Positions 20,759 through 61,442 of a stretch of 64,000 bases of DNA are shown one piece after another. The notes under the pieces were generated by a model. It was not told the origin of the DNA. It did no database searches and saw only the letters and a list, made by a program, of their open reading frames with translations. The stretch's first letter is position 1; the number at the start of each line of letters is the position of its first letter. The DNA lies in UHGV virus genome UHGV-1558314; one strand, 5' to 3'. The DNA is from a virus. The position numbers were made by a program, and so were the translations under genes.

Positions 20759-20801
20759 TCGGCAGGTATCTTCACATGTATTTGAGTTGATTACGATGTG
20801 A

Positions 20802-21629: not shown

Positions 21630-21697
21630 CTTGTATCTATGTTGTTGATTTTCAATTTAATATATTGAACAACATTTGTTGACATTTTGCAACATTG

Positions 21698-22072: not shown

Positions 22073-22073
22073 A

Positions 22074-22565: not shown

Positions 22566-22588
22566 ATTAAGTATGTGTTTGTATGTTG

Positions 22589-22933
22589 TTAGTACATTTC
22601 TCGTTTAACAAGAGCTTTGCGTTTTGAGCGTAACCCTGCCCTATTACGTAATTCTACTGACCAATCACGAATCATTTGCCATGCAATCCCACCACGTTGA
22701 ATACCACCGTGCTTGAACATTTCATTGCAAATACCTTGAATAAACACCGCATCAGACTTTGTCAATGCGTCAACAATTTGACCATGGTTGTCTTCTGTCT
22801 TGACATCATTACAGAGCTTAAGTTCATCTACTGAAAGTTCGCCAAGCAGCTCATAGTAGTATATGAGAGCTTTGCGTGCGGCAATTGCTTTTCTTGAATT
22901 GCCAGAATAAGACAAAGTTACATGTTTGCTCAT
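22589..22933 (-). CDS. Hypothetical protein (114 aa)
   Basis: Track start at 22939 is TTG; ATG at 22931-22933 used. Confidence 0.35.
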   Translation of the reverse strand: MSKHVTLSYSGNSRKAIAARKALIYYYELLGELSVDELKLCNDVKTEDNHGQIVDALTKSDAVFIQGICNEMFKHGGIQRGGIAWQMIRDWSVELRNRAGLRSKRKALVKREMY

Positions 22934-22949
22934 ATTCAATTATTGTTAT

Positions 22950-22972
22950 TATATGTTGATATTGTACAACAT
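22950..22972 (-). promoter_or_regulatory. Recurrent promoter box (coding-strand ATGTTGTACAATATCAACATATAAT)
   Basis: Plus-strand tatatgttgatattgtacaacat; TATAAT-like element ~10 nt downstream of the box on the minus strand. Confidence 0.45.
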
Positions 22973-22975
22973 GTG

Positions 22976-24175
22976 TTAACTTTTTGCATGACCACAATCA
23001 TACACCGCAACATAGCCAGCATCAATCATCTCTTGCTCATCTTGTCCGCAATCTTCAATATGTTCTTTTGTCTTCAAATGACACCAGTGTTTGCGAATTG
23101 TTGACTTGTCATCTGACAATTGCGGATTGAGTGCGAAGTCAGTTGAGTCTACTGGTTCACCTGCAAGATGCTTTCTAATGACATCAATGACAACATCAAA
23201 TGGCATCCAGTCAAACACTGTAATGCAAGTGTAGCTGTGTTTGATAGCAAGTTGTGTTTTGTTAAAATGGTTGTCATATGGTCGTTGCCAATTATGATTT
23301 GCATTGAACACAATATTTGCAAAACTACGCGTGCTATTATGAGAAATAGTTGGGTTAAGTTCAATTAGCAACTTATGCGATTTGCAAACAATGTCATATG
23401 ACAATGACGTGTTCTCAAATGTAAATTCTTGCTCAAAATGCACATCAAGGTTATCAAATAGCATGTTAAGCCTTGTGCATATTTTTGTATTGTGTGCAGA
23501 CTTTGCTTTAGATTTTGCTCTGCATTGAGGCAATTGGCATGGCCACACTACACCATGACGTGACAATGTTGTTGCACGAATTGCGTCAAGATTCGTTGAT
23601 GGATTGCCATATCGAGCTATTCGAGTTTGCCTTGCTTTGTCTATATTGCCTGGGCCTGCATTGCCCCATCGCTGCAACTTTGTTTGTCGAGCTTGTTCAT
23701 GATTGCTGTAATATGGGTCTCCATATCGTTCAAGCTTTGTTTGCTTTAACTTACTCATGTCGCCAAGCCCATTGCCATACTTAGCACGCTTTGTTTCTAT
23801 GCCTTTCTTTAGATTGCCTCGTTTGTTGCCATATTTTGCAATGTTGTGTGCATTACGTTTTTCAATGTCACCAAACCCATTGCCATATCGTGCAAATTTT
23901 GTTGCTTGCGCTTTTTCAAAATTGACTGCTAATGTGCCATAACGAGCATACTTAGTTGCTTTGCCCTTATCAACGACTTCTTTACGATGCAATGCAGCTT
24001 CAACACCATATTTTCGCAAATTTGTAATTTTTGCATTGTATCGTCGTCTAATTGTTGCATGAGTGTTGTTACGAGACCCTGTTCTGACATATTCAGTTGC
24101 AGCAAGTTCAGCATCACGTAACTGCTCAAGTTCTGCAATTCGTTGTTCAAGTTCAGCGCCTACAAGTGGTTTCAT
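22976..24175 (-). CDS. Homing-endonuclease-like protein with ~18-aa basic tandem repeats (intact paralog)
   Basis: About eight repeats of K-x-x-A-T-K-x-A-R-Y-G-N type; N-terminal coiled coil; C-terminal YDIVCKSHKLLIELNP resembles a PD-(D/E)XK-like core with N in place of K. Located between the two DNA polymerase fragments. Confidence 0.45.
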   Translation of the reverse strand: MKPLVGAELEQRIAELEQLRDAELAATEYVRTGSRNNTHATIRRRYNAKITNLRKYGVEAALHRKEVVDKGKATKYARYGTLAVNFEKAQATKFARYGNGFGDIEKRNAHNIAKYGNKRGNLKKGIETKRAKYGNGLGDMSKLKQTKLERYGDPYYSNHEQARQTKLQRWGNAGPGNIDKARQTRIARYGNPSTNLDAIRATTLSRHGVVWPCQLPQCRAKSKAKSAHNTKICTRLNMLFDNLDVHFEQEFTFENTSLSYDIVCKSHKLLIELNPTISHNSTRSFANIVFNANHNWQRPYDNHFNKTQLAIKHSYTCITVFDWMPFDVVIDVIRKHLAGEPVDSTDFALNPQLSDDKSTIRKHWCHLKTKEHIEDCGQDEQEMIDAGYVAVYDCGHAKS

Positions 24176-24183
24176 GTGTTGTT

Positions 24184-25689
24184 TTACAATTTGATTGCGC
24201 CTCTACGAGCAAGCTCTTCTTCAATCAATCGAACATGATTGTTAGAATACCAGAACTGAATTTTTTTGTGATAATTACGCTTGTCTCCAAGTTCTTCCTG
24301 TACTGCTTTGTACATGCTTTTTTCATGATTGTCATACAAGCAGTCATTAACGGACACAAAGTACTCTGGCAATGACTTGTAATGCGCAATTTCATCAGGA
24401 TTTGTCAGACGTCTGATAAAGTTATCCGGTGATACATTGCATGATTTCATTGAACTTGGATAGAGTGAATTTGCATCAACACAAACAACTTTATGAGCCC
24501 AATGGTTAAATGGTTGCTTCACAAAGCCACCTTCAAATGCATGCACAACATTTTCTGGACCGCCTTGAGCACATACGACTTTGCCACCATATTTGTTGTA
24601 CAAATATGTCATCATGACGCCCTCAGATTGCTTAACTGGGCCTTGACAGTGGTTCATATCAATGTTTGACACATTTGACAAGCCCATCACATTTGATATC
24701 AAGTCAGTTTTTGCAGCAATCATCGCATTGACCATCGTATCGACAGCATTATATGCAATGAACGTGCATGGATGATACAAATACAGCTCTTTAAGTGTAC
24801 AATCATAGGGCAGCTTACCTACACCGAACATACGATGTGCAATATAGTCAAGTCGCAATGACTCTTTTTGCCACACTGAATAGTCGTATGTGTCCATGAG
24901 CTGCATGTAGTCATCAATGTACTTGTGATATGGCATACCATTGCCCCAGACAGTTCTGCCAACTGGAGATGCCAATGCTAAATCAATATTGTGCATTGCG
25001 CATCGATTTTTGACATAGATGTTGTCGAAGCCATTGATGTTCCAGCCTGTCAATGCAGGAATGTTTTTGAAGAGCTTAGTCACCCAAAAATGCAACAATT
25101 CATGCTCATTTGCATGTTGAAAGATTTTGACAGTTGGATGTTCTTTCAAATACGCAGCAAAGCAATGTTGACCCATGTACTCTTGAATGATGCCATTGAC
25201 AAACTCAAATGCATCATCCAGTGTTGGGTTTTGTTTGCCACAGCTTTTGCGCAAATCATCATCATTCAACAAGTCAACAGTAGTCTGAATGACACAATTG
25301 CATTGTTCATCGCATGTACTTATTGCATTAATGGGCATTTCAGCTTTGTCAGGCTTTGGAAAGCCATTGCCAATTTCAGTCTCAATATCGTAAAAGTATA
25401 ACTTTGGTCTACGATAAGCAAACAATTCAACTTTGTCAGCTTCAGGCAATTCAAATAAGAATTGCAGCAAGTCAAATTGATTGAATCGTTTTGCTGTGAC
25501 TCGAGTCACAGGCAATTTGCGCCAATCTTGAATATCTGCATATTGCGGCTCTACATGGTCTGATATTTGCCATACTGGAAATTGATATGGCTGTTCACAG
25601 ACTGGGTATGTTTTGATGTCAATGCCACCTTGCTCATTAACGTATGAAACTTCAATGCCATGTGACAAATATGCTACGTCGACAATCAT
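24184..25689 (-). CDS. Family-B DNA polymerase, N-terminal fragment (3'-5' exonuclease motifs and motif A)
   Basis: Exo I FYDIETE, Exo II NINGFDNIY, Exo III YNAVD, motif A VDANSLYPS. Track start 25725 is TTG; first ATG 25687-25689 used. Confidence 0.8.
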   Translation of the reverse strand: MIVDVAYLSHGIEVSYVNEQGGIDIKTYPVCEQPYQFPVWQISDHVEPQYADIQDWRKLPVTRVTAKRFNQFDLLQFLFELPEADKVELFAYRRPKLYFYDIETEIGNGFPKPDKAEMPINAISTCDEQCNCVIQTTVDLLNDDDLRKSCGKQNPTLDDAFEFVNGIIQEYMGQHCFAAYLKEHPTVKIFQHANEHELLHFWVTKLFKNIPALTGWNINGFDNIYVKNRCAMHNIDLALASPVGRTVWGNGMPYHKYIDDYMQLMDTYDYSVWQKESLRLDYIAHRMFGVGKLPYDCTLKELYLYHPCTFIAYNAVDTMVNAMIAAKTDLISNVMGLSNVSNIDMNHCQGPVKQSEGVMMTYLYNKYGGKVVCAQGGPENVVHAFEGGFVKQPFNHWAHKVVCVDANSLYPSSMKSCNVSPDNFIRRLTNPDEIAHYKSLPEYFVSVNDCLYDNHEKSMYKAVQEELGDKRNYHKKIQFWYSNNHVRLIEEELARRGAIKL

Positions 25690-25700
25690 ATTATTATCTT

Positions 25701-26111
25701 TTAGAATAGAGATATTGTACAACAATTTGATTCAGGTTGCCATTCTACAATATGCGCATCAAAGTGTTTGTTAAGCCAATGTGCAAGTATGTGTCTATGA
25801 CAAAATGCAGATGGTCTGCACCAACATAACAATACAATGTCTCGTTCGCCTGCAAAAATCTTTATGCGATGCAGCATCAAACTTATCTGTGACAATGCAG
25901 CGTCAAGTTTTGCTGCATATTGCTCTGCATATTGTGCATTGTCAAGCAAGCCTGCTTTATGCAAACGAACAAGTGACATGTAATCAGGCATGACGTCAGT
26001 CCATGTAAAATCTGCTATGAAGCCCTTAGGCTTTGTTGCAGACACTTGAACAAGAAATGCGTTATCAGGCAGATGCCTGCATGCATAATATGAAGTCAAG
26101 ATTCTTGTCAT
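25701..26111 (-). CDS. Small protein with C-x-x-x-x-C-H-R motif (DUF488-like?)
   Basis: LLCWCRPSAFCHRHILAHWL; family assignment from memory only. Confidence 0.3.
   Translation of the reverse strand: MTRILTSYYACRHLPDNAFLVQVSATKPKGFIADFTWTDVMPDYMSLVRLHKAGLLDNAQYAEQYAAKLDAALSQISLMLHRIKIFAGERDIVLLCWCRPSAFCHRHILAHWLNKHFDAHIVEWQPESNCCTISLF
25711..25726 (-). promoter_or_regulatory. Promoter box upstream of polymerase N-terminal gene
   Basis: attgtacaaca at 25714-25724, embedded in the 3' end of the upstream gene. Confidence 0.4.
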
Positions 26112-42763: not shown

Positions 42764-43822
42764 TTACTGCTTCAAGCCTGTGAACAGTTCATACTTGAAT
42801 GCAGGCCCTGCTGTGTAAGCCTCAAAGTAGAAGTCACCAATATTGATGCTTGCAATAGCGTCATCGACAGCTTTCTTGTAGCCTACACGTTCAATTGTCT
42901 GCTTATCGCATTTACGCCAATATGTGCTGTGCATCATAAGCGTGGGTGATGCAGCATAGTCTACTGCAAGCTGTTGTTTTGCAGTGTCAATGTGATGTTC
43001 ATAGATGTGCACATCATTGCCAGTCCAAATGAACTCTCTTGCCGCACAGTTAGTCAATGTTGCAACAATATGTGTAAGCAATGCATATGATGCGATATTG
43101 ATGGGCACACCAAGACACATGTCACAACTACGCTGAGTAAGCGCACAGTCAAGCCACATGCTTGGTACTTGAGCAGAATCAAGGCATTCTGCAGAACAAT
43201 CATGCACAAGCATGCTATCATTAGCAATCTGAATTCGTTCTTCAAGAGTCATTGGCTGACAATTGAACTGAAACAGCATATGACATGGCGGCAATGCCAT
43301 CTGAGACATTTGTGCAGGATTCCATGCAGACACGACTTTGTAGCGGCCAGTTGGATTGATGACAATGTCTTTAATGCAAGTTGCAAGTTGGTCATATCCA
43401 CTGTCATTGAAGTTGCGCCACTGATACCCATAGATAGGTCCGCAATCACCATACTCAGGCTTGCTGAATTTTGTGTTATGCAGTTCTGTGCACCAAGTTT
43501 CAAAGTCGACATCTTCACCTGGATGCAGTTTACGCCAATGACGATATGCATCCTGATGCCAGAACTTTGTAATACCAAGCGTGTCAAGCGTTTTTACATT
43601 TGTATCACCTGACATAAACCACAGAAGTTCTCCAATGACACCCTTGACAAACATTCTCTTGGATGTCAACAGTGGAAAGCCTTTACGCAAATCAAATCGC
43701 ATTGATTCTACAAACAATGACTTTGTGCGAGGCATGTTTTCACGAGCAGGCTCCTTAAATCTGCCATGTTCAATAACATTGTTAAGTACTCTCAAGTACT
43801 CAGTGTCGTGTTTGATATTCAT
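42764..43822 (-). CDS. thyA: Thymidylate synthase (ThyA family, canonical dUMP-type)
   Basis: ELLWFMSGDTN, LPPCHMLFQF (catalytic Cys), GVPINIASYALL with Asn at the base-specifying position. Confidence 0.75.
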   Translation of the reverse strand: MNIKHDTEYLRVLNNVIEHGRFKEPARENMPRTKSLFVESMRFDLRKGFPLLTSKRMFVKGVIGELLWFMSGDTNVKTLDTLGITKFWHQDAYRHWRKLHPGEDVDFETWCTELHNTKFSKPEYGDCGPIYGYQWRNFNDSGYDQLATCIKDIVINPTGRYKVVSAWNPAQMSQMALPPCHMLFQFNCQPMTLEERIQIANDSMLVHDCSAECLDSAQVPSMWLDCALTQRSCDMCLGVPINIASYALLTHIVATLTNCAAREFIWTGNDVHIYEHHIDTAKQQLAVDYAASPTLMMHSTYWRKCDKQTIERVGYKKAVDDAIASINIGDFYFEAYTAGPAFKYELFTGLKQ

Positions 43823-47047: not shown

Positions 47048-47929
47048 CTATCGTTTGAATTTGATGAAGTGTTCAGCATCGAGGCCCTCAAATACATACG
47101 GGTCAAGAGTTTCCCAGAAGTTTGAGTATGTCGTTGTCTTTGCAATGCTTGTTTGCTTTGACAAGTTCATATTTGGGTAGCCAAGCATTGCATAGTGTCG
47201 CTCATATATGTGCATTGACGTCGCATTATGCACATATGCGCCAAGCTTAAGACCAAGTTCATTTGCGACAAGTTCTTGCAACAAAGTGAATGCAAACTGG
47301 TCGTTGCAAAAGCCCCAAATGACATCATTGCTTCGCATGTATGTTGTCAAGTACAGCTTATCACCACGAACATTGAAAACAAGATTCAATGTGCATGGCA
47401 TGTCTTTGCCAGTGTAGTTTGCATATTGCGGCTCATAAATGCTAATAACTGCTCGTCTTGTGCATTCATGATTTCGCAAACGTTCAATGACATCTGCAAT
47501 CTGCTTGTGCCAAATTGCGCCATACTGTGAATTGACATTGACACCATCGTCGCTGAATTGCTTCCAACGAGGCAAATAACGTTCAATGCATTCAACTGCA
47601 GGATTGGCTGTCATGTACCACGCAAATTCTGCAGCAGCATTGAGCTTTTTCCATGGTCGTACGTCAATCTTGATTTGCCGCTGTGAAGGGTCCTGAATAA
47701 CTACAGACACATTCAGCAATTCTTTTGTTCGAGTCACTGTTTGTGCATTGTTGCCCTTTGATTCTACAAACTCACCTCTACAATGAAGTTCATACAAAAT
47801 TGAGCGAAATGCTTCTGTTGCAGTGTTTTCAATGATTGTCGTCTGTTGATAACATAAATTTGACGACAATGCTTCAGCATCATTGTACTTTATGCTGTCA
47901 TTGTCATAAGGTGAATTTTTTGTGTGCAT
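47048..47929 (-). CDS. Deoxycytidylate hydroxymethylase-like protein (ThyA-family paralog)
   Basis: RRAVISIY, PCTLNLVF (catalytic Cys), MRSNDVIWGFCNDQFAF with Asp at the base-specifying position, MHIYERH; closely resembles recalled T4 gp42 (MRSNDVVFGFRNDYAW, LHVYSRH). Confidence 0.55.
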   Translation of the reverse strand: MHTKNSPYDNDSIKYNDAEALSSNLCYQQTTIIENTATEAFRSILYELHCRGEFVESKGNNAQTVTRTKELLNVSVVIQDPSQRQIKIDVRPWKKLNAAAEFAWYMTANPAVECIERYLPRWKQFSDDGVNVNSQYGAIWHKQIADVIERLRNHECTRRAVISIYEPQYANYTGKDMPCTLNLVFNVRGDKLYLTTYMRSNDVIWGFCNDQFAFTLLQELVANELGLKLGAYVHNATSMHIYERHYAMLGYPNMNLSKQTSIAKTTTYSNFWETLDPYVFEGLDAEHFIKFKR

Positions 47930-47953: not shown

Positions 47954-49048
47954 TCATACAACGACGGTATCTCGTTTGCAATCTGTTCTGTCGAATATCG
48001 AGCAACAATATGATGCAGATTGCTCTTTGATTGCAATAGCTTCGTCATTGTCAAGTGATGAAATACCATCTATGTATGCTTTTGTATTGCCAGCGATGTC
48101 ATCATTTGTTAGCAATGCTGCACGACGTTCAGTACCAAAGAAGCCAAAGCACAATTGACGCTGCAATGCTTCACGAGAAATCTTGTCATCAAACTCGGAT
48201 TTCATGTGTTGCATAAATTCGACAATATCATCAATGTCGCATTGAGTAAAGTCAATGTACAATTTATGCATGTACTTGAATCGTTTGTAGTCTGTTGCAA
48301 GAATTTCTGGGTGCACAATGAACAACGTCTTTTTGCTGTCTATTGGATTTGCAATGACTGACGCTTGAACATAATCAACAAGCACGCCAGATTCACGAAG
48401 TTGCTCAACTGTTTTGCCAAATATATGCCCAAACGTGTCATCAAACCACTTCAAGTATACTTCGTTGTCTTCATCTTTTGATGCGCCAACAATGTAAATC
48501 TCATTGACTCCAAGCGCTTTAAGACGAGTGTCAGATAGCATCGTGTTCAATTGATGCTGCACATACAGCATTGGGCTGCTATGCAAAACTGTTTTGACAA
48601 TCTCACAAGCAATGTCCATATATGCATAGTCAAGCTTTGCAGATTTTGACACATACACTGCACGTTGCTGCAATGGCTCAATTGCTGAGCATGTGGTCAC
48701 AAAGTTGCCAACACATTCTGCTACTGCAATGTCATGCAAGTCATCTGCAATGTACACAATACTTGACAAGTCATCAAATGTTTGAACAAGTTGCTGAAGC
48801 TTTGTTTTGTAATTGCAGAGCATCAATGACTTGATGTTGCAATTGCCAAGCATTGTCTTGATGAGTCGTTGACCTGCTTCAGTGCTGTCACCAGAAATGA
48901 CATGCACATCGCAGTCAAACCAGTTCAACATGTCGATTGCATGCCGAACGCCATATTGCATTTGTTTTGCGAACTTGCCAGATTCATTGAACAGCATTTC
49001 ACCTGACATAATGCCGTCAAAGTCACATACGATTTGAAGTCTGTCCAT
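47954..49048 (-). CDS. HAD-superfamily (KdsC-like) phosphatase domain protein with uncharacterised C-terminal half
   Basis: N-terminal VCDFDGIMSGE ... VHVISGDS ... IADDLHD. Confidence 0.4.
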   Translation of the reverse strand: MDRLQIVCDFDGIMSGEMLFNESGKFAKQMQYGVRHAIDMLNWFDCDVHVISGDSTEAGQRLIKTMLGNCNIKSLMLCNYKTKLQQLVQTFDDLSSIVYIADDLHDIAVAECVGNFVTTCSAIEPLQQRAVYVSKSAKLDYAYMDIACEIVKTVLHSSPMLYVQHQLNTMLSDTRLKALGVNEIYIVGASKDEDNEVYLKWFDDTFGHIFGKTVEQLRESGVLVDYVQASVIANPIDSKKTLFIVHPEILATDYKRFKYMHKLYIDFTQCDIDDIVEFMQHMKSEFDDKISREALQRQLCFGFFGTERRAALLTNDDIAGNTKAYIDGISSLDNDEAIAIKEQSASYCCSIFDRTDCKRDTVVV

Positions 49049-49412: not shown

Positions 49413-52400
49413 TTAACAAATTGATGACGTGCCATCAGTATTTGCTACAACTGTCAATGCACTATCAAACTCATCTTGTTGCAATACATGGTCAACTATG
49501 AGTGTTTTGCGAATTGCAGAAAGCTTGGTAAGCAACTGCATCAACACTTGCTGATAATTGATATTGTTGACATCATGCTCAGCGCCAACAATCTGCCCAT
49601 TGCTAAGCTTGCCACTGATTTCGTCAATGAGCAAGATGTTGCCCACTTTGTTTAAGCGTTGAGTCAAAATGAGATGCACGATTGCAAGACCTGCGAAAGT
49701 TCCTTCCATGCCAGACATTTGACTTACACTTCGAATTGACTTCGAGCCCATCAAGTCAATCATCTTCAACACATTGTTGTCATTGATGTCAAAGAACACT
49801 CGGTAGTTCAATGAATCCAGCAAATCATTGAGCTGTGCATTCAGTGATGTTGCAATTGCTGCAAAGACATATGAAACTAAGCCTCGTTTGCTTGTGCACT
49901 GCTTATATGCATTGTACACCAAGTTTGCAATGTTCCACTTTTTCGAAGCTTGCAAATCTTTCTTGAGAGCTTCAATTCGCACATTGTTTGCTGATAAGTC
50001 TGCTTGCATTGTTGCAATTTCTGCATTGATGCTTAGCAGTTTTGAGTTCGCTTCAGTTTCATGCTGCTTAGCATCATCAATGTCGACTTGCAATGCAGCA
50101 TTTGTTGTAATATGCTGCTGAGTTTGCTGTGCATGTTCAAGTGCAAATGCTGCAGCAGTCTTATCAATCTCAAGTTGTTTAAGCGCAGACTCATATGTCG
50201 CTTTCTTATCATACTCTGCTTGAGCAATTTCAAGTTCAGCATTTATTGCAGCCAGTTCTGATTCTACTGTAGATTTTGATTGCAATACATCTTGCTTTGC
50301 TTGTTCAGCTTTACGTTTGATGTCTGCAAGTTGATTTGTGATATCTGCAATTTGCATTTTGACTGCTTCGACTTCAAGCAATGTTGCTGCAGTAGCCATT
50401 GGTTGTGCAATGAATGCATCTAAGTCTCTTTGCGCATTGACTACAGTTCTCTGCAAATCATTGAGCTTTTCTGCATGCATGTCATATGCTGCTTTGTGTG
50501 CTGGATTCAGTGCAGCAATTATTGCATTTGAATCTGTAACATCTATGATTGCTGCTTGCAGTTGCTCAATTTCATACTTCAAATTGCCAATTTTGACAAC
50601 ATTCTCATTGAATTGCTCTGTCTTTTGCGCACATTCTTGACGCAACTTAGCAAGCTCAGTTGACAACCACAGCTTGTATGCTTGTCCTGTGCCAGATGTC
50701 AAGTCATTTGTACATACAGGGCATTTGTCGTTTTCAAGTTGCTTTTGCTTGTCTATAACATTGTCGATGTTTGTTTTTGCAGCAGATATTTCTGTTCTAA
50801 GTGCATTTTGAACAGTGTTGATGTCTTCAATTTGCTTTTGCAAAGCATCTATTTTTGCCCGAGTGTTTGCATTGTACGACTTGCCAAGATTTATCAGCAC
50901 AGAATCAATGTGCTGCTTTGCTGCATCATATGCAAGCTTTGATTCATCAAGCTTTGTTCTGTACAATGACTCTGCATGCGCAACTTCTTTCTGCACTTTT
51001 GCAGATAGCTCATTCTGTTTTGTAAGCAGCTCAGCATATGTATTGTGCAGCTGTGAGCCAGATGCTATGACATTTGTGTATGCTGTATTAGCTTCATTGT
51101 CAATATTAGTGAGTTGCTGCTCAATCTGTGCTTTTGCTGTTTGCAACTTAGACATATCTTGCAATGCAAGTGCAGCAATGTCAAGCTCAACTTTGTGAAT
51201 CTTTGCAATGATGCCATCGATATTTGCTGTTGCATCTTCTATAGTTAAGATGTCTGCAGGAATTTGATGTAGTTTCTTTGAGAGCTCTTCTACTTTTGCA
51301 CGAGCTTTTGTAAGCTTCGCGGACCACTCTTTTTGATTATCTTGTCGTAACTGCAAAGAGTAATTGAGTTCATTGCAAGTTGTATTGAGAGACTCAAGTT
51401 CTGCTTTTATTGCAACATCAGTCAATGCGGGCTTACTAAGGCCATCAAACAATGCAGCCTTTGCAGCATCATTAGAATTGCCAAGCTGTACAAATGTATT
51501 GATGCCAAGAGTATCAAGTAGCCAGTCATTCAATGAATTTGAGTCCATTGCAATGATTTGGTCAAGTAGTGTCTGATTGATACAAACATATCGCGACAAT
51601 TCCCAGATAGAGCCAAAGATTGCATATAGCGTGTCTTTGATTTCATGCTGCGGCACTACGTAGTCATCTGACAATCTTACAAGCTGAACAGTCTCATTGA
51701 CTGCTGACACGTTATCTCGCCATGAGCCATCTGCATTTATTCGAGAACCTCGTTTGAATTTGCGTTCAAGTGTTCGAATCAATTTGTAGTGAACATTTTG
51801 ACCTGCTACTACATGCACAAAGACACAAGAAGCTTCAAGCTTATCATATGACTCATTGTCAATCAATTTGTCATTGAAGTATGTCAAAGCGTTCTGCTTT
51901 GTTGCTGCAGAAGACTGTTCAGCGTCAATAAAGCCAGTCAGCAGCCATTTGATAAGTCTGAAGATTGTAGTCTTGCCATTGCCATTGTTGCCTCTAACTT
52001 GTGTAAGCTGTGCAAGATTGTCAAAGCTGACATCAACATCTTTCAATGCCATGAACTGATTTGCTTTAACATTTTGAATGACATATTTTGCAACTTCAGT
52101 GTCAAAAGACAATTTATCAATTTGTTCATCAATCAATGACTTGAACATGTCAACAAACTGCTGAGCATCTTCAGTAGCAACTATGGCATTGCGTTCAATG
52201 TATGCATTGACCCAGTCAAGTGCAGCGTCTTTAAGCCATTCAGCAGTTTGAACCTTTTGCAGCAAATTGTCGCCATTTGCGTCTACAGCATTGATTGAAT
52301 CAATGACAGCAGAATCATACAGAATGTCAATTGCAGCAACAACATATGAACTTACAAGATTCTGTGCAATGCGCTCAACAATACCAGACAGTTCGGGCTT

Positions 52401-53339
52401 TGTGACCTTTGACTTGATTTTGATTTTATTGATGCGGCCAGGGTTGATGAGTGCAATCTTGTCTGTTTTGACATCATTATCAATTGTGATTGTATGATAA
52501 TGCACAAGCTGCTCAAGTGGATGCCACTCTACCACAATTCGCTTGTTGTCAATATCGATGTCAAGCAAGTTGTAGCCATGTTCTGCAGTACCATGCTGTA
52601 TTGCAGTGTCATTCAACAAATAGTCGCCTTCACCAAAATCTCTGACAATTGGCGAGCCGCAATATGTTAATGTCTTATCACCAGCAACCCATATTGCATG
52701 CTTATGAATGTCACCCATTGCAACAAAGTTGCTATTAAATTGCATTGCATCTATACGACTGTCATTGTCACCACGAACAATACAATCATCAAAGTTGACA
52801 CAATTCTTTACAGGGTCATGGAACAGCTCAATGACACACATTGATGACAATGCTGCAATCTGCGATTCATCAAGTGATGCCCAAGGCGAATATGTGCCAC
52901 CAGACCACTTCTCATTTTGAGCCCATACTGCAGCAGCAAAACCAGGTGCAAGCAGTTCAACTCTTGAACTGTTGATATACTTGATTCGCTTGTCATCAAT
53001 TGCAGTTACAAGCTTGTCAATGCTATCTGTCCACTGCATTTGTGAACCATCACCAGCATCAAATGTGTTATCACGTTGCTTCAAATCATGATTGCCAGCA
53101 GTAATGACAATTTGAAGCTTGTCATTGACTTCAAGCATGCCTTTGAGCAGCTTAACAAACAGCGACTCTTCAAGTGAATTGCTATTCCAATGCTCAAACA
53201 CGTCGCCGACAATGAATACAAACTCAACTGACTTTGCTTTGTCAATTAGTTGTTTGTTGATGTGCTCATATTCTACGAAACGTCGTAAATGACCTTGTCG
53301 AACATTATATTGAATGTCTGCTATGTGAAGTGCTTTCAT
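49413..53339 (-). CDS. Fused Mre11/SbcD-like nuclease and Rad50/SbcC-like ATPase (1308 aa)
   Basis: N-terminal phosphoesterase motifs (LHIADIQ, IVGDVFEH, TAGNHD) resemble recalled T4 gp47; then Walker A GNNGNGKTT, long coiled coil, zinc hook CPVCTNDL, C-terminal LLIDEISGKL. Confidence 0.65.
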   Translation of the reverse strand: MKALHIADIQYNVRQGHLRRFVEYEHINKQLIDKAKSVEFVFIVGDVFEHWNSNSLEESLFVKLLKGMLEVNDKLQIVITAGNHDLKQRDNTFDAGDGSQMQWTDSIDKLVTAIDDKRIKYINSSRVELLAPGFAAAVWAQNEKWSGGTYSPWASLDESQIAALSSMCVIELFHDPVKNCVNFDDCIVRGDNDSRIDAMQFNSNFVAMGDIHKHAIWVAGDKTLTYCGSPIVRDFGEGDYLLNDTAIQHGTAEHGYNLLDIDIDNKRIVVEWHPLEQLVHYHTITIDNDVKTDKIALINPGRINKIKIKSKVTKPELSGIVERIAQNLVSSYVVAAIDILYDSAVIDSINAVDANGDNLLQKVQTAEWLKDAALDWVNAYIERNAIVATEDAQQFVDMFKSLIDEQIDKLSFDTEVAKYVIQNVKANQFMALKDVDVSFDNLAQLTQVRGNNGNGKTTIFRLIKWLLTGFIDAEQSSAATKQNALTYFNDKLIDNESYDKLEASCVFVHVVAGQNVHYKLIRTLERKFKRGSRINADGSWRDNVSAVNETVQLVRLSDDYVVPQHEIKDTLYAIFGSIWELSRYVCINQTLLDQIIAMDSNSLNDWLLDTLGINTFVQLGNSNDAAKAALFDGLSKPALTDVAIKAELESLNTTCNELNYSLQLRQDNQKEWSAKLTKARAKVEELSKKLHQIPADILTIEDATANIDGIIAKIHKVELDIAALALQDMSKLQTAKAQIEQQLTNIDNEANTAYTNVIASGSQLHNTYAELLTKQNELSAKVQKEVAHAESLYRTKLDESKLAYDAAKQHIDSVLINLGKSYNANTRAKIDALQKQIEDINTVQNALRTEISAAKTNIDNVIDKQKQLENDKCPVCTNDLTSGTGQAYKLWLSTELAKLRQECAQKTEQFNENVVKIGNLKYEIEQLQAAIIDVTDSNAIIAALNPAHKAAYDMHAEKLNDLQRTVVNAQRDLDAFIAQPMATAATLLEVEAVKMQIADITNQLADIKRKAEQAKQDVLQSKSTVESELAAINAELEIAQAEYDKKATYESALKQLEIDKTAAAFALEHAQQTQQHITTNAALQVDIDDAKQHETEANSKLLSINAEIATMQADLSANNVRIEALKKDLQASKKWNIANLVYNAYKQCTSKRGLVSYVFAAIATSLNAQLNDLLDSLNYRVFFDINDNNVLKMIDLMGSKSIRSVSQMSGMEGTFAGLAIVHLILTQRLNKVGNILLIDEISGKLSNGQIVGAEHDVNNINYQQVLMQLLTKLSAIRKTLIVDHVLQQDEFDSALTVVANTDGTSSIC

Positions 53340-53418: not shown

Positions 53419-53766
53419 TTATTTTGCAAGCATTTTGCTGATTGCATCTATCACAGTTTCACTGAGCAAGTAGTAGACAACGCTTATCAGCAATGATATC
53501 AGTACTGCAGCTGTGATAAATTGCAACGCATTCACAATTGCACGCACAAATGTTATCTGTGTGTTGTATGCAAGCACTATGCAGCATAGCACAATAATGA
53601 CACACCAGACTACAATTGCATATGCAGGCATCAATGAATTTGTCCATATGCAGTACAATACAGTAGTTAGCATCAAAAATGCTATTGCTCTGATGACTGA
53701 CACAATGATGTCTATGTAGAGCTTCATTACACGTAAATGAACTCTTGGCTTATGCGGTTTCATCAT
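53419..53766 (-). CDS. Small multi-pass membrane protein
   Basis: Start at ATG 53764-53766 overlapping upstream stop (ATGA); three hydrophobic helices. Confidence 0.35.
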   Translation of the reverse strand: MMKPHKPRVHLRVMKLYIDIIVSVIRAIAFLMLTTVLYCIWTNSLMPAYAIVVWCVIIVLCCIVLAYNTQITFVRAIVNALQFITAAVLISLLISVVYYLLSETVIDAISKMLAK

Positions 53767-54995
53767 GACTTTATGTACAATTCTGCAAGTTGTCTGGTGT
53801 ACAATCGTGGATTGTGATATGCTTTCCAATATGCAGTAGACTTTATTGCAGCAAGAATCTCATCATAATGTTTGACTGCTTTTGCTACAACTTCATCAAG
53901 TACATGCAAATCTTCTACACTAACAAGCAGCCATTTTTCTACAATGTCAATGAATTCTTGATTGCAATTAAAGCCATATTTGTAGTTGCAAGTGTCAAGT
54001 ACAAGTGGGATGCAGTCATTTGTCAGTGCTTCAAAAAATCTACGAAGACTGAAACAATTCTCATCATATGATGGAATGCTTAATGTAAACTTGGCAGTCT
54101 TGATGAGTTGCAAATACTCTTCGTATGGAATCAGAGGACCATTGTGCTTCCACTGATTGTTATGTCGTCTTGTTGTGTACTTGAACAAAAACTTTGAACT
54201 GTCAAGCTCACAAAGATGGTCCATGCGTAAAATGTAGTTATAGCGGTCTCTTCTATCAGGCCAACTGTCAGTCATTGCAAACACAAAGTCTCTTTGCTTG
54301 TCACATTTTGCTGACATACCTCTATGCTGACACATGCAGTACCAATATTGCTGCGATGGACTGAACTCGAACTTTGAGTGATGCTCACTGCCATCTTTGC
54401 ATTGTTGAACGTAAATATTGTCAGGCACAAAGTGAAAGTAGAAATGTCGAATTTGCAAGCCGTCAATGTAGTCAAGCTTATGCTGCAATGGGTCCTCACA
54501 GAAATTGTAACACTGAATGCGTTTTGCTGCAGCATACTCAGCAACTATGAATGTGCACACCCATTGCAATGCGATGTCTTCACTCTTCAAAAAGTCAACA
54601 AGTGGCTCATTTGGATGCGCTTTGCATTCATTGAACATTTTGTACCACTTGCATTGCTCCATGTCATACTTGGAGACTGTATTGCCATTAAAAAATGACA
54701 CAGTATCAATTTTGAATGCCTCAAGTTGTTTATGCACAATGTCGATTGCTTGTGCATATGTGACAGTCTCATCAGACATTATTTGTGCAAACTTGATTGG
54801 ATGCGCATGCAAATTTGCAATTGTGTCTGCTGACATTTTGCGCTGTGTATGATAATCGACATACAAAAACTGACACTTGTCTGTAAGCAATTCAAGCATT
54901 GCTACAGATTTCCATCGAATTGCTTGAAAGAAATTGAAGTGCGCAGTTTGAAAAATGAGATGCGTAGGCTTGTCAGAATGAGTCAAAGTTTGCAT
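53763..54995 (-). CDS. Glycosyltransferase-like protein (GT-B-type C-terminal motif), paralog B'
   Basis: IPSYDENCFSLRRFFEALTNDCIPLV resembles GT-B donor-binding motif; paralogous to 58026..59582 (shared EDPLQHKL, PSQQYWY). Track start is TTG; ATG at 54993-54995 used. Confidence 0.45.
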   Translation of the reverse strand: MQTLTHSDKPTHLIFQTAHFNFFQAIRWKSVAMLELLTDKCQFLYVDYHTQRKMSADTIANLHAHPIKFAQIMSDETVTYAQAIDIVHKQLEAFKIDTVSFFNGNTVSKYDMEQCKWYKMFNECKAHPNEPLVDFLKSEDIALQWVCTFIVAEYAAAKRIQCYNFCEDPLQHKLDYIDGLQIRHFYFHFVPDNIYVQQCKDGSEHHSKFEFSPSQQYWYCMCQHRGMSAKCDKQRDFVFAMTDSWPDRRDRYNYILRMDHLCELDSSKFLFKYTTRRHNNQWKHNGPLIPYEEYLQLIKTAKFTLSIPSYDENCFSLRRFFEALTNDCIPLVLDTCNYKYGFNCNQEFIDIVEKWLLVSVEDLHVLDEVVAKAVKHYDEILAAIKSTAYWKAYHNPRLYTRQLAELYIKS

Positions 54996-56158
54996 GGACA
55001 AATGTCGCAGTTATGTTGATGTTTGTGTTTATTTATGAAGTCATATGTCACTGCAAAAAAGTGCTTTGCAATGTCATATCGAGTTTTCAAATATGCTGCT
55101 TGTCGTTCACAAAATGCTGCATAAATATCTGGGTGTTGTTTGAATGCTGCAATGCGTTGCTGTACTTGTTCTGCAGAATGCACATATGACACTTTGCTCA
55201 AATATACATCATCTGCAAATAATCGTTTGTCTTTGTCAACTGCGCAATCAACAAAAGTTGCAATTCGTGCAACAATTGCTTCACCGACACGATTTGGTAT
55301 TAGCCCATATTGCTCATATTGCTGTTCGCCGATAGCAATGTGTGCTGCTGCATATGACATTGCATATGGCACACTATAAAATGGCACACTAAAATCAAAT
55401 GAACAATTTGACTGCAGCAATTGTGTTTGTGCATCAGACAATCTACTTGTCAAGTTGCCTGTATATTTGTGCTCACCAAGAAAACTTGAGCGACAGCCTG
55501 AATCTACATAGTATCGAATGACTTTGTTTATGCGACTGTCAGATAGCATATGCCAATCTCTTGTAGCATATATCAAGTCTACTGTTTTTGCGCCAATATG
55601 ACGAGGCTCTATCGCAACATTGCTGTATGTTGGCAGCATAAACAATGGCAGCCATTTGACATTGTTGAACACTGAATGCTCATTTGACAAATTCATGCAC
55701 TGGCTAAGTTCAAGTACTGGCTCATCATACACGCCATGTAGCTCAACTCTGCCTGCATGCACAAAGTTGACACGCTTAAATGGAAATCGCATATCAGTGC
55801 AAACTGTCATTCTTGCTGCAATAGACATTCGCCACATAGCATGCAGCTTAACAACTGCTTCTGCTTGAGGTCGAGGCAACATATTTAGCAAATCAATCCA
55901 GCCGCCCCACAAAATCCAAACATCATTTGAACAGATGTTGAATTGCAAACTCAATATGTCTTCTACTGTTGTAGCAATAATGTCATGCCCATTGATGCTT
56001 GCAAGGTGTTTTCGTTGATTTGCAATAATAATGACTTGACTGAATGGAGACTCTGGAAATGACACAAGCGCTTTTGCAAACAACACGGGTTCTTGCGACA
56101 CCAAGTTGTTTGAGTATGGGTCGATTATGCAATCAAGCTTGTGTATGAAGAGTCTCAT
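54983..56158 (-). CDS. Hypothetical protein (391 aa), paralog A' of 59579..60745
   Basis: Shared N-terminus MRLFIHKLD vs MSKLFILKFD and TDMRFPF vs TDLRFDF; sits immediately upstream of a GT-like gene. Confidence 0.4.
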   Translation of the reverse strand: MRLFIHKLDCIIDPYSNNLVSQEPVLFAKALVSFPESPFSQVIIIANQRKHLASINGHDIIATTVEDILSLQFNICSNDVWILWGGWIDLLNMLPRPQAEAVVKLHAMWRMSIAARMTVCTDMRFPFKRVNFVHAGRVELHGVYDEPVLELSQCMNLSNEHSVFNNVKWLPLFMLPTYSNVAIEPRHIGAKTVDLIYATRDWHMLSDSRINKVIRYYVDSGCRSSFLGEHKYTGNLTSRLSDAQTQLLQSNCSFDFSVPFYSVPYAMSYAAAHIAIGEQQYEQYGLIPNRVGEAIVARIATFVDCAVDKDKRLFADDVYLSKVSYVHSAEQVQQRIAAFKQHPDIYAAFCERQAAYLKTRYDIAKHFFAVTYDFINKHKHQHNCDICPCKL

Positions 56159-58025: not shown

Positions 58026-59582
58026 TCATTGCACTTCTACGAATGGCTCTTTCAACACAAAGCTGTCACCATTGCAACATGCGGCTGAGCCATCGTCTGC
58101 ATCAAGTGCGCATGACATATCAGACTTGCAGAACTTGCAATATGAACATGACCATGCATGACTCATAAAGTTGTTTGCTTCACAAATTACACAGCGCTCA
58201 TGTGAAAGTGTATTGTCGCAATTGTCACAAGACTTCTTGATTGGCACATCTTTATTGATATATGCAAGATGCAATGCAATATCATACACAAAGTCACCCG
58301 TATATTGCTGAATGAAATCAGTGTGCCACAACTCTTTTAACAATTGTGTATGTCTATATGGCTGAACAATGTCTTCAAGATGCTGCAAGTCATCATCGCT
58401 AACCATGAGCTTCTTAATGACAAACTGTTTGAACTGCGGCCATCTGTCAAACATATAGAGTTTGCATGAGTTGTGCACAAGTGGAACACAGCCAAGCACA
58501 ATGCTTTCACAGAATCTACGCAAACTAAAACAGTTTGCATCATATGACGGCACAATCAATGTGAATCTGCTATGCTTGATGAGTTCAAGGTATGTGTCAT
58601 ATGGCAGTAGCTTGTCTGACAATGGCTGCTGTTGCTTGTCCCTGCTGAAAAATCTGAACACAATGCCTTTATCAATTGCATCTTGATTGTGCAGATGCAT
58701 GAGTTTGTTGATGAGTTCTGTGCGTTCAGTTTTGTCTCGCCAAGTATTCGTCAATGCAAATGCAAAATTCAGTCGCTTGTCATCAAACGTCGCTTCAATG
58801 TCATCCCAAGTTTTGTCATGCAAATACCAGTATTGCTGTGATGGGCACCATCCATAATATGCAATAGCGTCTTGTTCTGCTGTAACGTCATACACATATG
58901 CAGAATTGTATTCAAGGCCAAGCCCTTTGACATTGTTGCAGTCATGAAAGTACCAATGCTGCACTTTGAATATCTTTGATGCACTGAATGCGCTTTCATA
59001 TGGCCCTGAATAGCGATAGTCAATGTAATTGAGCTTGTGCTGCAATGGGTCTTCGACAAAGTTGTTTATGACTGTGCCTTGTTGTTTGCCATTAGTCTTG
59101 CGAGCATTCAATGCAATATTGTACTGCATAATGACTGACAGCATCTCATACACTACATACATGAGTGCTTTGTAGACTGAGCCTGCTGCGTCAATTAGCG
59201 GCAAATCACGTTTGACTGATGCAGTACCAAATGTCTTGCAATATGCAGAAAATGTATCAAGTTCTGCCTGTTGAAATGAATTGCATGCGCCATTGAATAT
59301 GTTGAATGTTGCAATGTAGCTCATATTACAAGATGTCATTGACATATCAAGACGCTTCATAATGTCAGCAATGCGACATTGAGCAAAATCTGACACATCA
59401 ACATATTTGACATGATGACCTGATGCAGTCAAGCCAACTGCGACTTCTTTCATTTGTGGCACAAAGCCTACTACAATGAACAAGTCATCTTTGTTTGCTC
59501 GTTCAAACATTGCTGCACTTTTCCAAGTCAATGAATTGAAAAAGTCTATGTAGCCAGTCTGTGTGATGATATGTGTTCTCAT
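58026..59582 (-). CDS. Glycosyltransferase-like protein (GT-B-type C-terminal motif), paralog B
   Basis: VPSYDANCFSLRRFCESIVLGCVPLV; C-terminal Cys-rich extension (CDNCDN...CVICE...CSYCKFC). Confidence 0.45.
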   Translation of the reverse strand: MRTHIITQTGYIDFFNSLTWKSAAMFERANKDDLFIVVGFVPQMKEVAVGLTASGHHVKYVDVSDFAQCRIADIMKRLDMSMTSCNMSYIATFNIFNGACNSFQQAELDTFSAYCKTFGTASVKRDLPLIDAAGSVYKALMYVVYEMLSVIMQYNIALNARKTNGKQQGTVINNFVEDPLQHKLNYIDYRYSGPYESAFSASKIFKVQHWYFHDCNNVKGLGLEYNSAYVYDVTAEQDAIAYYGWCPSQQYWYLHDKTWDDIEATFDDKRLNFAFALTNTWRDKTERTELINKLMHLHNQDAIDKGIVFRFFSRDKQQQPLSDKLLPYDTYLELIKHSRFTLIVPSYDANCFSLRRFCESIVLGCVPLVHNSCKLYMFDRWPQFKQFVIKKLMVSDDDLQHLEDIVQPYRHTQLLKELWHTDFIQQYTGDFVYDIALHLAYINKDVPIKKSCDNCDNTLSHERCVICEANNFMSHAWSCSYCKFCKSDMSCALDADDGSAACCNGDSFVLKEPFVEVQ

Positions 59583-60745
59583 GATTTGAATGTTTGTTCA
59601 AGAATTGTGTAACACTGCACAATCATTACTGCAAGAGCTTTTTGCTGTGCTTGTTTGCAATCATCAAAATTTGTGGGCGCAGTGCGTACGCGTGTTTTGC
59701 TATTAAGTGTCGCAAATGTCGCGTAGTCATCGAAGCCTATAATGTCAGCAAATAGGGCAATTGGCTTATAATCTACAAGTATGTTGCAGCAATTTGCAAG
59801 TACGCCTTCAACCCATCGATTTGGCAGCAAGTCTGCTTGCACATACAATGAATCACCAACTACAAGATTGTATGCCGACTGTGACATTACACGCGGCATT
59901 GCATCGTATGTGACTTTGTATTTAAGTGTAAAGTTTGGTGCTGCTGATTTAATCGCAGACAAAATTGTGTCATCAAGATATGATGTTATGAGACACGTGT
60001 CGCACATATGTATGACAAATTGTTCAATCACACTTCTACGATACTCGTCAAGATATGTGAAACCTGCACAACTTGCACAGCATGCATATTGCTGCTTTAT
60101 GTCAGCAAAGCTACGCACATGAGCTTCAATTGCATTTTGCATCGTTACTTGTAGTTTAAGCAATCTTGGCTCTTTAATGTATTGAAGCTTCAATGCATTG
60201 ACTGCTGCAATGATTTGCAATGGGGCAAACACACATTGAGACTCATCAAGCCAAGCGTATTTGAGATTTTTGTGCTGGCATAGATGCGTAATGTTGTCTT
60301 TTTGTGATTCTAAGTACTCTTTGTAATTGTGCAATCGCTTTGTCAATGTGCATTCTTTATCAAAGTCGAATCGCAAATCAGTTGTTAGTGTAAATTTGCG
60401 AGCGTTTGACAAACACCATGTTTTGAATGCATTCCACAGAACATCTTGCTGAAATTCTGAGCAATGTTCAAGAGCAGCCTTTGAACCTTGCCAGAATATT
60501 GCGCAATCATCTGATTTTGCGCACTTCAGCATATCTTGCCATGCATGTATGTTATTGATAATATGCACATTATCATACACAAGCTCATCAAGTATTGCAT
60601 GCTTGTTCTCAGGGTCGCCAAACACATATACAGCATCAAACATTGTCTGCACAAAACCTGCAAATGCAATAGGTTCTGTATGCTTAAGATGCTGTACGTC
60701 TGAACGCACGCATGTGTCAAATTTCAAAATGAATAGTTTGCTCAT
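59579..60745 (-). CDS. Hypothetical protein (388 aa), paralog A
   Basis: ATGA overlap with downstream GT-like gene; paralogous to 54983..56158. Confidence 0.4.
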   Translation of the reverse strand: MSKLFILKFDTCVRSDVQHLKHTEPIAFAGFVQTMFDAVYVFGDPENKHAILDELVYDNVHIINNIHAWQDMLKCAKSDDCAIFWQGSKAALEHCSEFQQDVLWNAFKTWCLSNARKFTLTTDLRFDFDKECTLTKRLHNYKEYLESQKDNITHLCQHKNLKYAWLDESQCVFAPLQIIAAVNALKLQYIKEPRLLKLQVTMQNAIEAHVRSFADIKQQYACCASCAGFTYLDEYRRSVIEQFVIHMCDTCLITSYLDDTILSAIKSAAPNFTLKYKVTYDAMPRVMSQSAYNLVVGDSLYVQADLLPNRWVEGVLANCCNILVDYKPIALFADIIGFDDYATFATLNSKTRVRTAPTNFDDCKQAQQKALAVMIVQCYTILEQTFKS

Positions 60746-61442
60746 ATACTTTGCAATTATCTATTACATGTTGATATTGTACTTCATCTATGATGTGATT
60801 TGCAATGACACCATATGAGGCGTCATACATTGGCATCTTCTCATATGACAATGCTGCGTCAAGATTGCATATCACATAATTGCAATGCACAATGTCATCT
60901 ACATTGTCACTAACTGCTACGATATTGACACACTTTGCAAGAAATGCATCATCAAAGTCTACTTGATTGCATGCAACCTCATAATCTGCTGCGCTTCTTG
61001 GGTACCAATATAACTCAATGCCAGCACTACTAAGTAGTCGCAAGCCATCTATGTGATGATACAAGTCAACAAAATGCACTTGCTTAACGCCTGCTTGCAA
61101 AATAAGCTTTGCGCAATCAATGCATGGACTGTATGTTACATACAGCACTGCGTCATTTGCGGTCGCATTGCCATATTTGCACAGCTTCATCAATGCGTTT
61201 GATTCTGCATGCAAAACTTCTTTGTTGGTTTTGATACCTGCCGATGTTGCATGCTCACAACAATTTGACATGCCAGTTGGCATGCCATTGTAGCCATCTG
61301 AAATTATGCAACCATTTTTTACAAGCAATGCGCCAACTTTTGCTCGCTGAGCATATGAATTTAATGACCAAAGCTCAGCCATTTTAAGATATATGAGATT
61401 TCGTTGAAACTGCTTTGTTTCAGACCAAGTTAGCCATTTCAT
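60717..61442 (-). CDS. dCMP deaminase (zinc-dependent cytidine/deoxycytidylate deaminase family)
   Basis: HAESNAL ... SPCIDCAKLI zinc-binding motifs. Confidence 0.7.
   Translation of the reverse strand: MKWLTWSETKQFQRNLIYLKMAELWSLNSYAQRAKVGALLVKNGCIISDGYNGMPTGMSNCCEHATSAGIKTNKEVLHAESNALMKLCKYGNATANDAVLYVTYSPCIDCAKLILQAGVKQVHFVDLYHHIDGLRLLSSAGIELYWYPRSAADYEVACNQVDFDDAFLAKCVNIVAVSDNVDDIVHCNYVICNLDAALSYEKMPMYDASYGVIANHIIDEVQYQHVIDNCKVYEQTIHFEI
60766..60785 (-). promoter_or_regulatory. Promoter box embedded in 3' end of dCMP deaminase gene
   Basis: acatgttgatattgtacttc about 25 nt upstream of ATG 60745. Confidence 0.35.

Follow-up and report, generated by a model that had tools for sequence, protein, structure and literature searches.

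A predicted single-chain Mre11-Rad50 (SbcD-SbcC) protein encoded in the uncultured virus genome UHGV-1558314

Mre11/SbcD-type nucleases and Rad50/SbcC-type ATPases are encoded by two genes in Escherichia coli (sbcD and sbcC) and in phage T4 (genes 47 and 46). In UHGV virus genome UHGV-1558314, of which one 64,000-nucleotide stretch (the window) was analysed, a gene at positions 49413-53339 appears to combine the two in a single protein of 1308 amino acids (aa). Is this fusion real, and does one polypeptide take the place of the usual pair? An initial annotation had proposed one Mre11/SbcD and Rad50/SbcC polypeptide, and this is confirmed here by sequence, profile and structure tests. Its description is corrected as to the strand, the fusion gene being encoded on the minus one. 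Most economically, one protein is taken to do the work of the pair. In our view it is a naturally occurring single-chain Mre11-Rad50 (SbcD-SbcC) enzyme, from an uncultured phage with kinship to the jumbo phages PAU, PTm1, pT24 and MA9V. Most likely it acts as a homodimer that uses ATP to cut DNA ends and hairpins, in place of the two-gene gp47/gp46 (SbcDC) system. We give this reading a probability of roughly three in four.

One reading frame with a nuclease half and an ATPase half

The open reading frame (ORF) starts with ATG at 53339 and runs down to 49413 on the minus strand, without an internal stop, across 1308 codons and a stop codon (49413-49415). All features of the fusion gene described below are on this strand. 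For a 3.9-kb ORF in DNA of about 40% GC, an origin by chance is far beyond what can be expected. The N-terminal part is a Mre11/SbcD-like metallophosphoesterase nuclease domain (52590-53339, residues about 1-250), which is delimited by Pfam Metallophos, by the invariant columns of alignment A1, and by AlphaFold2 (AF2) modelling combined with Foldseek. The Metallophos match covers residues 1-95 and scores 25.4 bits against a cutoff of 21.5. Motifs were located by regular expressions on the translation. Motif I is HIADIQ (residues 5-10, nt 53310-53327), which contains D8-x-Q10. Motif II is GDVFEH (residues 45-50, nt 53190-53207), with G45, D46 and E49, and motif III is GNHD (G82, N83, H84 and D85, nt 53085-53096), which includes the catalytic His84. 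These two agree with the patterns G-D-x-x-[D/H] and G-N-H-[D/E], as D46, N83 and H84 are invariant and position 49 is Glu, Gln or Asp. Motif IV is LFHD (residues 172-175, nt 52815-52826), with H174, and motif V is GDIH (G209, D210, I211 and H212, nt 52704-52715). Every motif listed by the initial annotation is present at a definable position, but motif I reads D-x-Q and not D-x-H, and motif V reads G-D-x-H and not G-H-x-H.

Direct sequence comparison with the PDB gave only marginal SbcD/Rad50 matches (E 0.03-0.5), so structure prediction was needed. An AF2 model of residues 1-430, built from a 28-sequence alignment with a mean predicted local distance difference test score (pLDDT) of 88.5, has a phosphoesterase sandwich followed by a beta-rich capping domain (52305-52589, residues about 251-345). 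The limits of the capping domain are approximate and come from AF2 secondary structure and Foldseek alignments. A flexible linker (residues 346-355, pLDDT below 50) and two helices (366-383 and 389-407) follow at 52116-52304. All of the top 50 Foldseek matches of this model in the PDB are Mre11/SbcD chains (E. coli, S. aureus, P. furiosus, M. jannaschii, T. maritima, human and Chaetomium), with probability 1.00 and E values from 1e-12 to 6e-8. The target-normalised template modelling (TM) scores are 0.41-0.69, and about 0.55-0.69 for chains that hold both nuclease and capping domain; alignments to such structures (e.g., 7dog, 4lu9 and 1ii7) extend over 365-390 columns. The modelled fold is that of the nuclease and capping domains of Mre11/SbcD. 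The two helices are placed in the model like the helix-loop-helix Rad50-binding domain of Mre11 and would bind the base of the coiled coil. The fusion junction (52092-52115) is a non-helical linker of about 8 residues (409-416), identified from the AF2 model and the profile match in relatives. It is predicted to join the last helix of the helix-loop-helix to the first beta-strand of the Rad50 head at residue 417.

The ATPase N-lobe (51420-52091, residues about 417-640) was recognized through Pfam AAA_23, which matches residues 427-690 with 41.7 bits (cutoff 27). It contains the Walker A motif GNNGNGKT (residues 450-457, nt 51969-51992) and a putative Q-loop, INQTLLD (nt 51561-51581), with Q589. 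The ascending coiled-coil arm (50739-51419, residues about 641-867) is defined by AF2 helices and a match to the SbcC-like phrog_77, and AF2 predicts interruptions in it near residues 689-699 and 715-739. It leads to a zinc-hook apex (50691-50738, residues 868-883), assigned from the conservation of the hook CPVC (residues 873-876, nt 50712-50723; C873 and C876). The descending arm (49896-50690, residues about 884-1148; AF2 helices) returns to the ATPase C-lobe (49416-49895, residues about 1149-1308), which was placed by alignment with E. coli SbcC, T4 gp46 and distant fusions. The C-lobe holds the signature MSGMEG (residues 1208-1213, nt 49701-49718), the Walker B motif ILLIDE (residues 1235-1240, nt 49620-49637), SGKLS at the D-loop position (nt 49602-49616) and the H-loop IVDH (residues 1281-1284, nt 49488-49499). 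Walker A, Walker B and H-loop are split between the two termini, as in ATP-binding cassette (ABC) ATPases. Signature, Walker B and H-loop align with E. coli SbcC and T4 gp46; in the signature, S1209, G1210, M1211 and E1212 align with LSGGE of E. coli SbcC, with Met for the second Gly. The hook was aligned by BLASTP with the hook CPTC of T4 gp46.

An AF2 model of residues 281-1308 (pLDDT 81.2) shows long helices that run to the CPVC turn and back with few interruptions, followed by the ABC C-lobe. Each arm is about 230-265 residues long. Foldseek matched this model to Rad50, SbcC and the wider superfamily of structural maintenance of chromosomes (SMC) proteins (condensin, Smc5/6, MukB, JetC and LmuB). 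Taken by itself, the predicted fold of the ATPase half reads only as SMC-like, and the Rad50/SbcC-like assignment is made because this half has an invariant CxxC apex and is fused to a Mre11 module. The sequence and the model agree on a probable antiparallel coiled coil that has a CxxC apex and no SMC hinge, as in Rad50/SbcC. Pfam SMC_N scores 15.2 bits, below its cutoff of 40, and Pfam Rad50_zn_hook matches residues 862-883 weakly (E 0.12).

Could the single ORF be an artefact of assembly or sequencing, or a recent pseudo-fusion of two adjacent genes? Nothing speaks for this except the prior expectation of two genes, and the chance of it is close to nil. An ORF of identical length is present on three independently assembled metagenome contigs. 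The ortholog L008 has 94.9% nucleotide identity to the window gene with zero indels; its 153 synonymous and 36 non-synonymous codon differences correspond to a ratio of non-synonymous to synonymous rates (dN/dS) of about 0.06, and the replacements are mostly in the coiled coil. The absence of an internal stop or frameshift, as claimed in the initial annotation, holds, and no sequencing error restores two genes. A first homology search returned 15 proteins, all collinear and 1284-1401 aa long, and the closest relatives (97%, 51% and 34-39% identity) are metagenomic. An exhaustive HMMER search of cluster representatives with a profile of residues 1-650, i.e., nuclease, junction and ATPase N-lobe, recovered 6190 representatives at E<=1e-3, of which 235 reach E<=1e-30. 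Almost all of the top 150 among these 235 are 1170-1480 aa long and cover profile positions 1-654 as one continuous match across the junction. The fusion gene was kept in every relative found. Domain annotation, with Metallophos and AAA_23 both above gathering scores, structure prediction of the two fragments, with Mre11/SbcD on one side and Rad50, SbcC and SMC-type ATPases on the other, and the junction in related genomes had all been named as checks by the initial annotation, and all three support the fusion.

The protein family is already catalogued as phrog_35725 and occurs in published phage genomes. The match to this profile is end-to-end (E 7.1e-113; residues 2-1304 on profile positions 8-1366 of 1376). 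Full-length homologs are found in the cultured jumbo phages PAU (gp288), PTm1, PTm5, pT24 and MA9V-1/2 (tblastn, 25-27% identity over 98-100% of the query). PAU was assigned to Sphingomonas (really Sphingobacterium), PTm1, PTm5 and pT24 infect Tenacibaculum, and MA9V-1/2 infect Chryseobacterium. The phrog_35725 phages, isolated in several laboratories, resemble the window protein in length (1301-1326 aa) and in the D-x-Q / G-D-I-H / SGM / CxxC pattern, and differ from it in that identity is only about 25%. Megablast of the fusion gene against 50,697 phage records gave zero matches at the DNA level.

Variant residues at the catalytic sites

Residue statistics were collected over 152 full-length members of the family. 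D8, D46, N83, H84, H174, H212, K456, C873, C876, D1239 and E1240 show practically no variation. K456 was found in 152/152 members, D1239 and E1240 in 151/151, and H1284 in 145 members, and both hook cysteines are kept in 152/152. The signature SGM is found in at least 146 of the 152, and the family form is SGM[E/Q]. The catalytic and nucleotide-binding residues of the fusion protein are under strong purifying selection.

Three canonical residues are replaced in most members. Position 10, the His of D-x-H in motif I, is Gln in 137/150 and His in 13/150. Position 210, the first His of G-H-x-H in motif V, is Asp in 141/151 and His in 10/151, and Asp is also found there in all of the more distant fused proteins examined. 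Position 1246, the canonical D-loop Asp, is Asn in 112 members, Ser in 25 and Asp in 5; the Ser1246 of the window protein aligns with the D-loop Asp of E. coli SbcC (GTLD) and of T4 gp46. In the C-lobe alignment, an insertion of 9-20 residues follows the D-loop in this clade only. The initial annotation had asked for the Rad50 signature and D-loop on alignment. The signature is present as SGM[E/Q], but the D-loop Asp is missing, being Ser here and Asn in most members. This does not refute a Rad50-type ATPase, because the substitution is clade-specific and the ABC ATPase is otherwise intact. What appears to be specific to this clade, on the evidence of these alignments, is a nuclease site of the form D-x-Q / GDxFE / G-D-x-H, together with a D-loop that has Asn or Ser and is followed by the insertion.

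Positions 10 and 49 were also seen to co-vary among the 152 members: where residue 10 is His, residue 49 is Asp or His, and where it is Gln, residue 49 is Glu or Gln. His10 and His210 occur together in no member. The codons for residues 10, 49 and 210 are at nt 53310-53312, 53193-53195 and 52710-52712.

Do these substitutions mean that the nuclease module is dead, and that the protein is an ATP-driven SMC-like DNA tether or end-bridging factor which, for example, holds genome ends or concatemers? The Gln and Asp majorities at positions 10 and 210 would fit such a role, as would the lack of any member that combines both canonical histidines and the score of NCBIfam TIGR00619 (sbcd) under its cutoff. 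We nevertheless judge a dead nuclease to be decidedly unlikely. The other metal ligands and the catalytic His84 remain invariant down to about 18-25% identity, which is unexpected for a decayed site. Gln and Asp side chains are both able to ligate metals; in E. coli 5'-nucleotidase, which belongs to the same superfamily, Gln is a metal ligand. The change of His to Asp is common to Mimivirus R555 and all distant fusions examined. Additionally, because position 10 co-varies with position 49 of motif II, a site that is remodelled but still maintained is suggested. The variant catalytic residues therefore read, at the level of sequence, as maintained variants and not as decay.

It is tempting to go one step further. 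Both remodelled catalytic centres could mark a mechanistically distinct Mre11-Rad50 machine, with altered metal use and altered communication between the heads, which could be tuned to the phage's own hypermodified DNA or to its discrimination from host DNA. The fusion gene has thymidylate-synthase-like and glycosyltransferase genes as neighbours, and PAU DNA is reportedly heavily modified. We offer this as a speculation that is unlikely to hold.

Other viral fusions and the two-gene systems

The first description of fusions of Mre11 and Rad50 is that of Yoshida, Claverie and Ogata (2011, Virol J 8:427; PMC3175470), who reported them from Mimivirus (R555), a Bacillus phage, plasmids and several eukaryotes, along with abundant homologs in virus-fraction metagenomes. 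The fusion is therefore of an already known kind. The initial annotation had stated that these are normally two genes, which overstates how unusual the fusion is, as natural fusions had been described in 2011. Like R555 (1351 aa), the window protein has an N-terminal Mre11-like part, a region of the length of capping domain and helix-loop-helix, a short linker, and a C-terminal Rad50-like part, in this order in one polypeptide. A junction linker of 9-12 residues was predicted for the fusions (PMC3175470), as compared to about 8 in the window protein. In Mre11-Rad50 (MR) of T. maritima, about 28 Å separate the C-terminus of Mre11 from the N-terminus of Rad50, which suits a short linker in this order of fusion (PMC3175470). 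R555 also carries Asp (Asp242; PMC3175470) for the His206 of P. furiosus in motif V, and both types are reported to be abundant in aquatic viral metagenomes. R555 differs in that its motif I is D-x-H and its motif II is GDxxH, as opposed to D-x-Q and GDxFE, and the clade of the window protein is set apart by the replaced D-loop Asp and the insertion after it. R555 was compared through its published description; the link to its type rests on that description together with profile-profile and BFVD structural matches.

In hhalign comparisons, A1 is collinear over 1032 columns with marine and aquatic fusions of about 1050 aa (probability 100%, E 7e-61), and it matches an aquatic fusion group of about 1262 aa along a stretch that starts in the nuclease, crosses the junction and reaches the ATPase N-lobe (E 3e-25). 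A profile of these two aquatic groups found at least 7168 related clusters. When the nuclease module was searched by structure against BFVD, proteins of pT24, PTm1 and PAU came first, followed by Mimiviridae fusions from Harvfovirus, Tupanvirus, Klosneuvirus, Yasminevirus and Tetraselmis virus (E 1e-18 to 1e-15) and from Pyramimonas orientalis virus, Bodo saltans virus and Catovirus. The Mimiviridae fusions rank above most unfused phage SbcD/gp47 proteins. A7KV18 of Bacillus phage 0305phi8-36, a fusion named in 2011, is also among the matches.

In a very large set of viral lineages, then, the fused form is the norm and not an oddity, and the wider fused group links jumbo phages with Mimiviridae. 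Its scale is considerable: the family comprises hundreds of 50%-identity clusters, and the wider fused group thousands of 90%-identity clusters. Annotation has not followed. Homologs in OR513085, OR050627, NC_049340, NC_049383 and NC_019521 are labelled only as 'metallo-phosphoesterase', 'DNA repair' (exonuclease) or 'gp288', and the Rad50/SbcC half is not mentioned. What GenBank, RefSeq and PHROGs call 'metallo-phosphoesterase' or 'DNA repair exonuclease' should be read as a complete Mre11-Rad50 end-processing machine. No new question is opened by this, since the 2011 paper had already laid out how the fusion is built and what it probably does. A single-chain MR with fixed stoichiometry and a variant active site could still be a convenient model for structural and biochemical work.

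E. coli SbcCD and T4 gp47/gp46 share with the window protein the nuclease and capping fold, the ABC head, the coiled coil, the CxxC hook, and the expected role in replication and recombination. They differ from it in that they consist of two polypeptides, and in that canonical enzymes have D-x-H, G-H-x-H and a D-loop Asp; the window protein departs from all three. The whole of T4 gp46 is 560 aa long, too short for arms of the length seen here. The alignment with T4 proteins that the initial annotation had recommended succeeds in part: hook, signature, Walker B and H-loop line up with gp46, but BLASTP against gp47 and gp46 otherwise stays at noise level except at Walker A. A close gp46/47 relative is rejected on this ground. 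The initial annotation had also pointed out that the nuclease domain precedes the ATPase. The order is true, but its significance was overstated, as it mirrors the operon order in E. coli, where sbcD comes first and overlaps sbcC by 4 nt, and in T4, where gene 47 lies ahead of gene 46. Because the fusion has the order of the operon, loss of the stop codon between adjacent or overlapping genes of sbcD and sbcC type is the simplest and most likely origin. The fusion would fix a 1:1 stoichiometry and may be ancestral to a very large group of fused viral proteins, the R555 type of Mimiviridae among them.

How such a protein might work can be outlined from SbcCD, T4 gp46/47 and the structures and genetics of archaeal and eukaryotic MR. 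Two chains would form a homodimer equivalent to the M2R2 head, in which the Mre11 domains dimerise. Each helix-loop-helix would hold the base of a coiled coil, either in cis or swapped. ATP binding would engage the two ATPase heads, while the tips of the coiled coils would be joined at their hooks via a shared Zn2+. DNA ends, hairpins or blocked ends would be clamped between the coils, and ATP hydrolysis would bring the nuclease into a cutting state that makes 3'-5' exonuclease and endonuclease cuts. In the phage, the enzyme would resect DNA ends for use in recombination-dependent replication and repair, and it could possibly take part in host-DNA degradation, as does T4 gp46/47.

Genomic setting

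The window is phage DNA; 59 of its 64 long ORFs are on one strand, and portal, prohead protease and baseplate protein are among them. The fusion gene sits in a conserved replication and nucleotide-metabolism module. Around it are genes for a DinG-like helicase, two thymidylate-synthase homologs, a DEDD exonuclease, a dCMP deaminase, and GT47-like and beta-glucosyltransferase-like proteins. Relatives at 34% and 25% identity have the same neighbourhood, and in the latter a NAD-dependent ligase adjoins. The region from 42764 to 62829 (minus strand) is likely a DNA-hypermodification and nucleotide module, the arrangement of which is kept in L006 and L008. On the minus strand, it includes a canonical thymidylate-synthase homolog (42764-43822), a divergent one that is possibly a hydroxymethylase (47048-47929), GT47-like glycosyltransferases (53763-55001 and 58026-59582), a beta-glucosyltransferase-like ORF (54983-56158) and the dCMP deaminase (60717-61442). 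Heavy DNA modification is reported for the related phage PAU.

Such neighbours invite the question of whether the protein is a weapon in phage-host conflict, i.e., a nuclease for defence, counter-defence or host-DNA destruction comparable to SMC-type Lamassu or to ATPase-nucleases of the OLD/Gabija type. The adjoining hypermodification module could allow self and host DNA to be told apart, T4 gp46/47 is annotated as required for host-DNA degradation, and PADLOC reports a match to the Lamassu SMC protein LmuB over residues 435-1295 (E 7e-16). The ABC ATPase head and the long antiparallel coiled coil are indeed shared with LmuB and with JetC of Wadjet. These proteins, however, lack a fused Mre11 nuclease, have other apex and partner proteins, and are found in bacterial defence islands, whereas the window protein has a putative zinc hook, a fused Mre11 module and the setting of a phage replication module. 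In Lamassu, bacterial defence loci encode LmuB beside LmuA, the effector, and in some cases LmuC; here there is no LmuA-type effector and no kleisin-like partner. The Lamassu interpretation is rejected because the LmuB match reflects generic SMC homology; Foldseek, too, finds all SMC-type proteins. The nuclease module is specifically of Mre11/SbcD type, and the gene is present in every relative found, with unchanged neighbours in the replication module. A role as a conflict weapon is thus improbable in our estimate, if somewhat less so than a dead nuclease.

The distribution of homologs within genomes is informative as well. No second Mre11/Rad50-like ORF was detectable among the ORFs of the window. 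In the complete 219,372-bp PAU genome, gp288 is the sole match (E<=1) to E. coli SbcC/SbcD, T4 gp46/gp47 and the two fused-family profiles A1 and A7, which fits a core and not an accessory role. SbcC/SbcD are practically universal in jumbo phages and are regarded as core recombination apparatus (PMC7824862). Two other PAU proteins have phosphoesterase annotations: gp163 (L013:19017-20267, 'calcineurin-like phosphoesterase'), which has no Pfam match at E<=0.01 and no PDB sequence match, and gp123 (L012:45952-46641, 'ser/thr phosphoesterase'), which has no Pfam match at E<=0.01. As candidates for a separate Mre11 both were rejected, having zero matches with the SbcD, gp47, A1 or A7 queries.

Several points weigh against a single-chain Mre11-Rad50 enzyme as the replacement of the usual pair. 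The PAU test used a handful of sequence queries, with which a very divergent second nuclease could be missed, and gp163 does carry an annotation of the relevant kind. The NCBIfam scores are far below their cutoffs, with 36 bits against 77.65 for TIGR00619 and 52 bits against 1000 for Rad50_Sulf. Substitutions affect two of the eight positions that are canonical for metal binding or catalysis (His10 to Gln, and the equivalent of P. furiosus His206 to Asp210), and nuclease activity is therefore an assumption. The Q-loop residue Q589 is invariant in alignment A4 and present in 86/152 of the wider family, where uncertainty of the alignment possibly contributes. With Ser or Asn in the D-loop and the insertion next to it, ATPase kinetics or communication between the heads may differ. 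Finally, a literature search on fused Mre11-Rad50 proteins found the bioinformatic paper of 2011 and no biochemical, genetic or structural work.

Some other genes of the window deserve mention. Just downstream of the fusion gene, an ORF of 364 aa (47954-49048, minus strand) starts with MDRLQIVCDFDGIM and has a HAD-phosphatase-like DxDG motif. It gave zero Pfam or PHROG matches and is in the same position in L006 and L008. A family-B DNA polymerase is apparently split within 19370-25725 (minus strand). One part (24184-25725, minus) corresponds to positions 111-490 of the 856 positions of phrog_262 and the other (19370-20662, minus) to positions 505-842; between them are a homing-endonuclease-like ORF (22976-24175, minus; phrog_3339) and several small ORFs. 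Another phrog_3339-like ORF occupies 14786-15736. Lastly, an ORF of 1316 aa (1612-5562, minus strand) matches a head maturation protease (phrog_207) in its first ~240 residues only, and about 1000 more residues follow.

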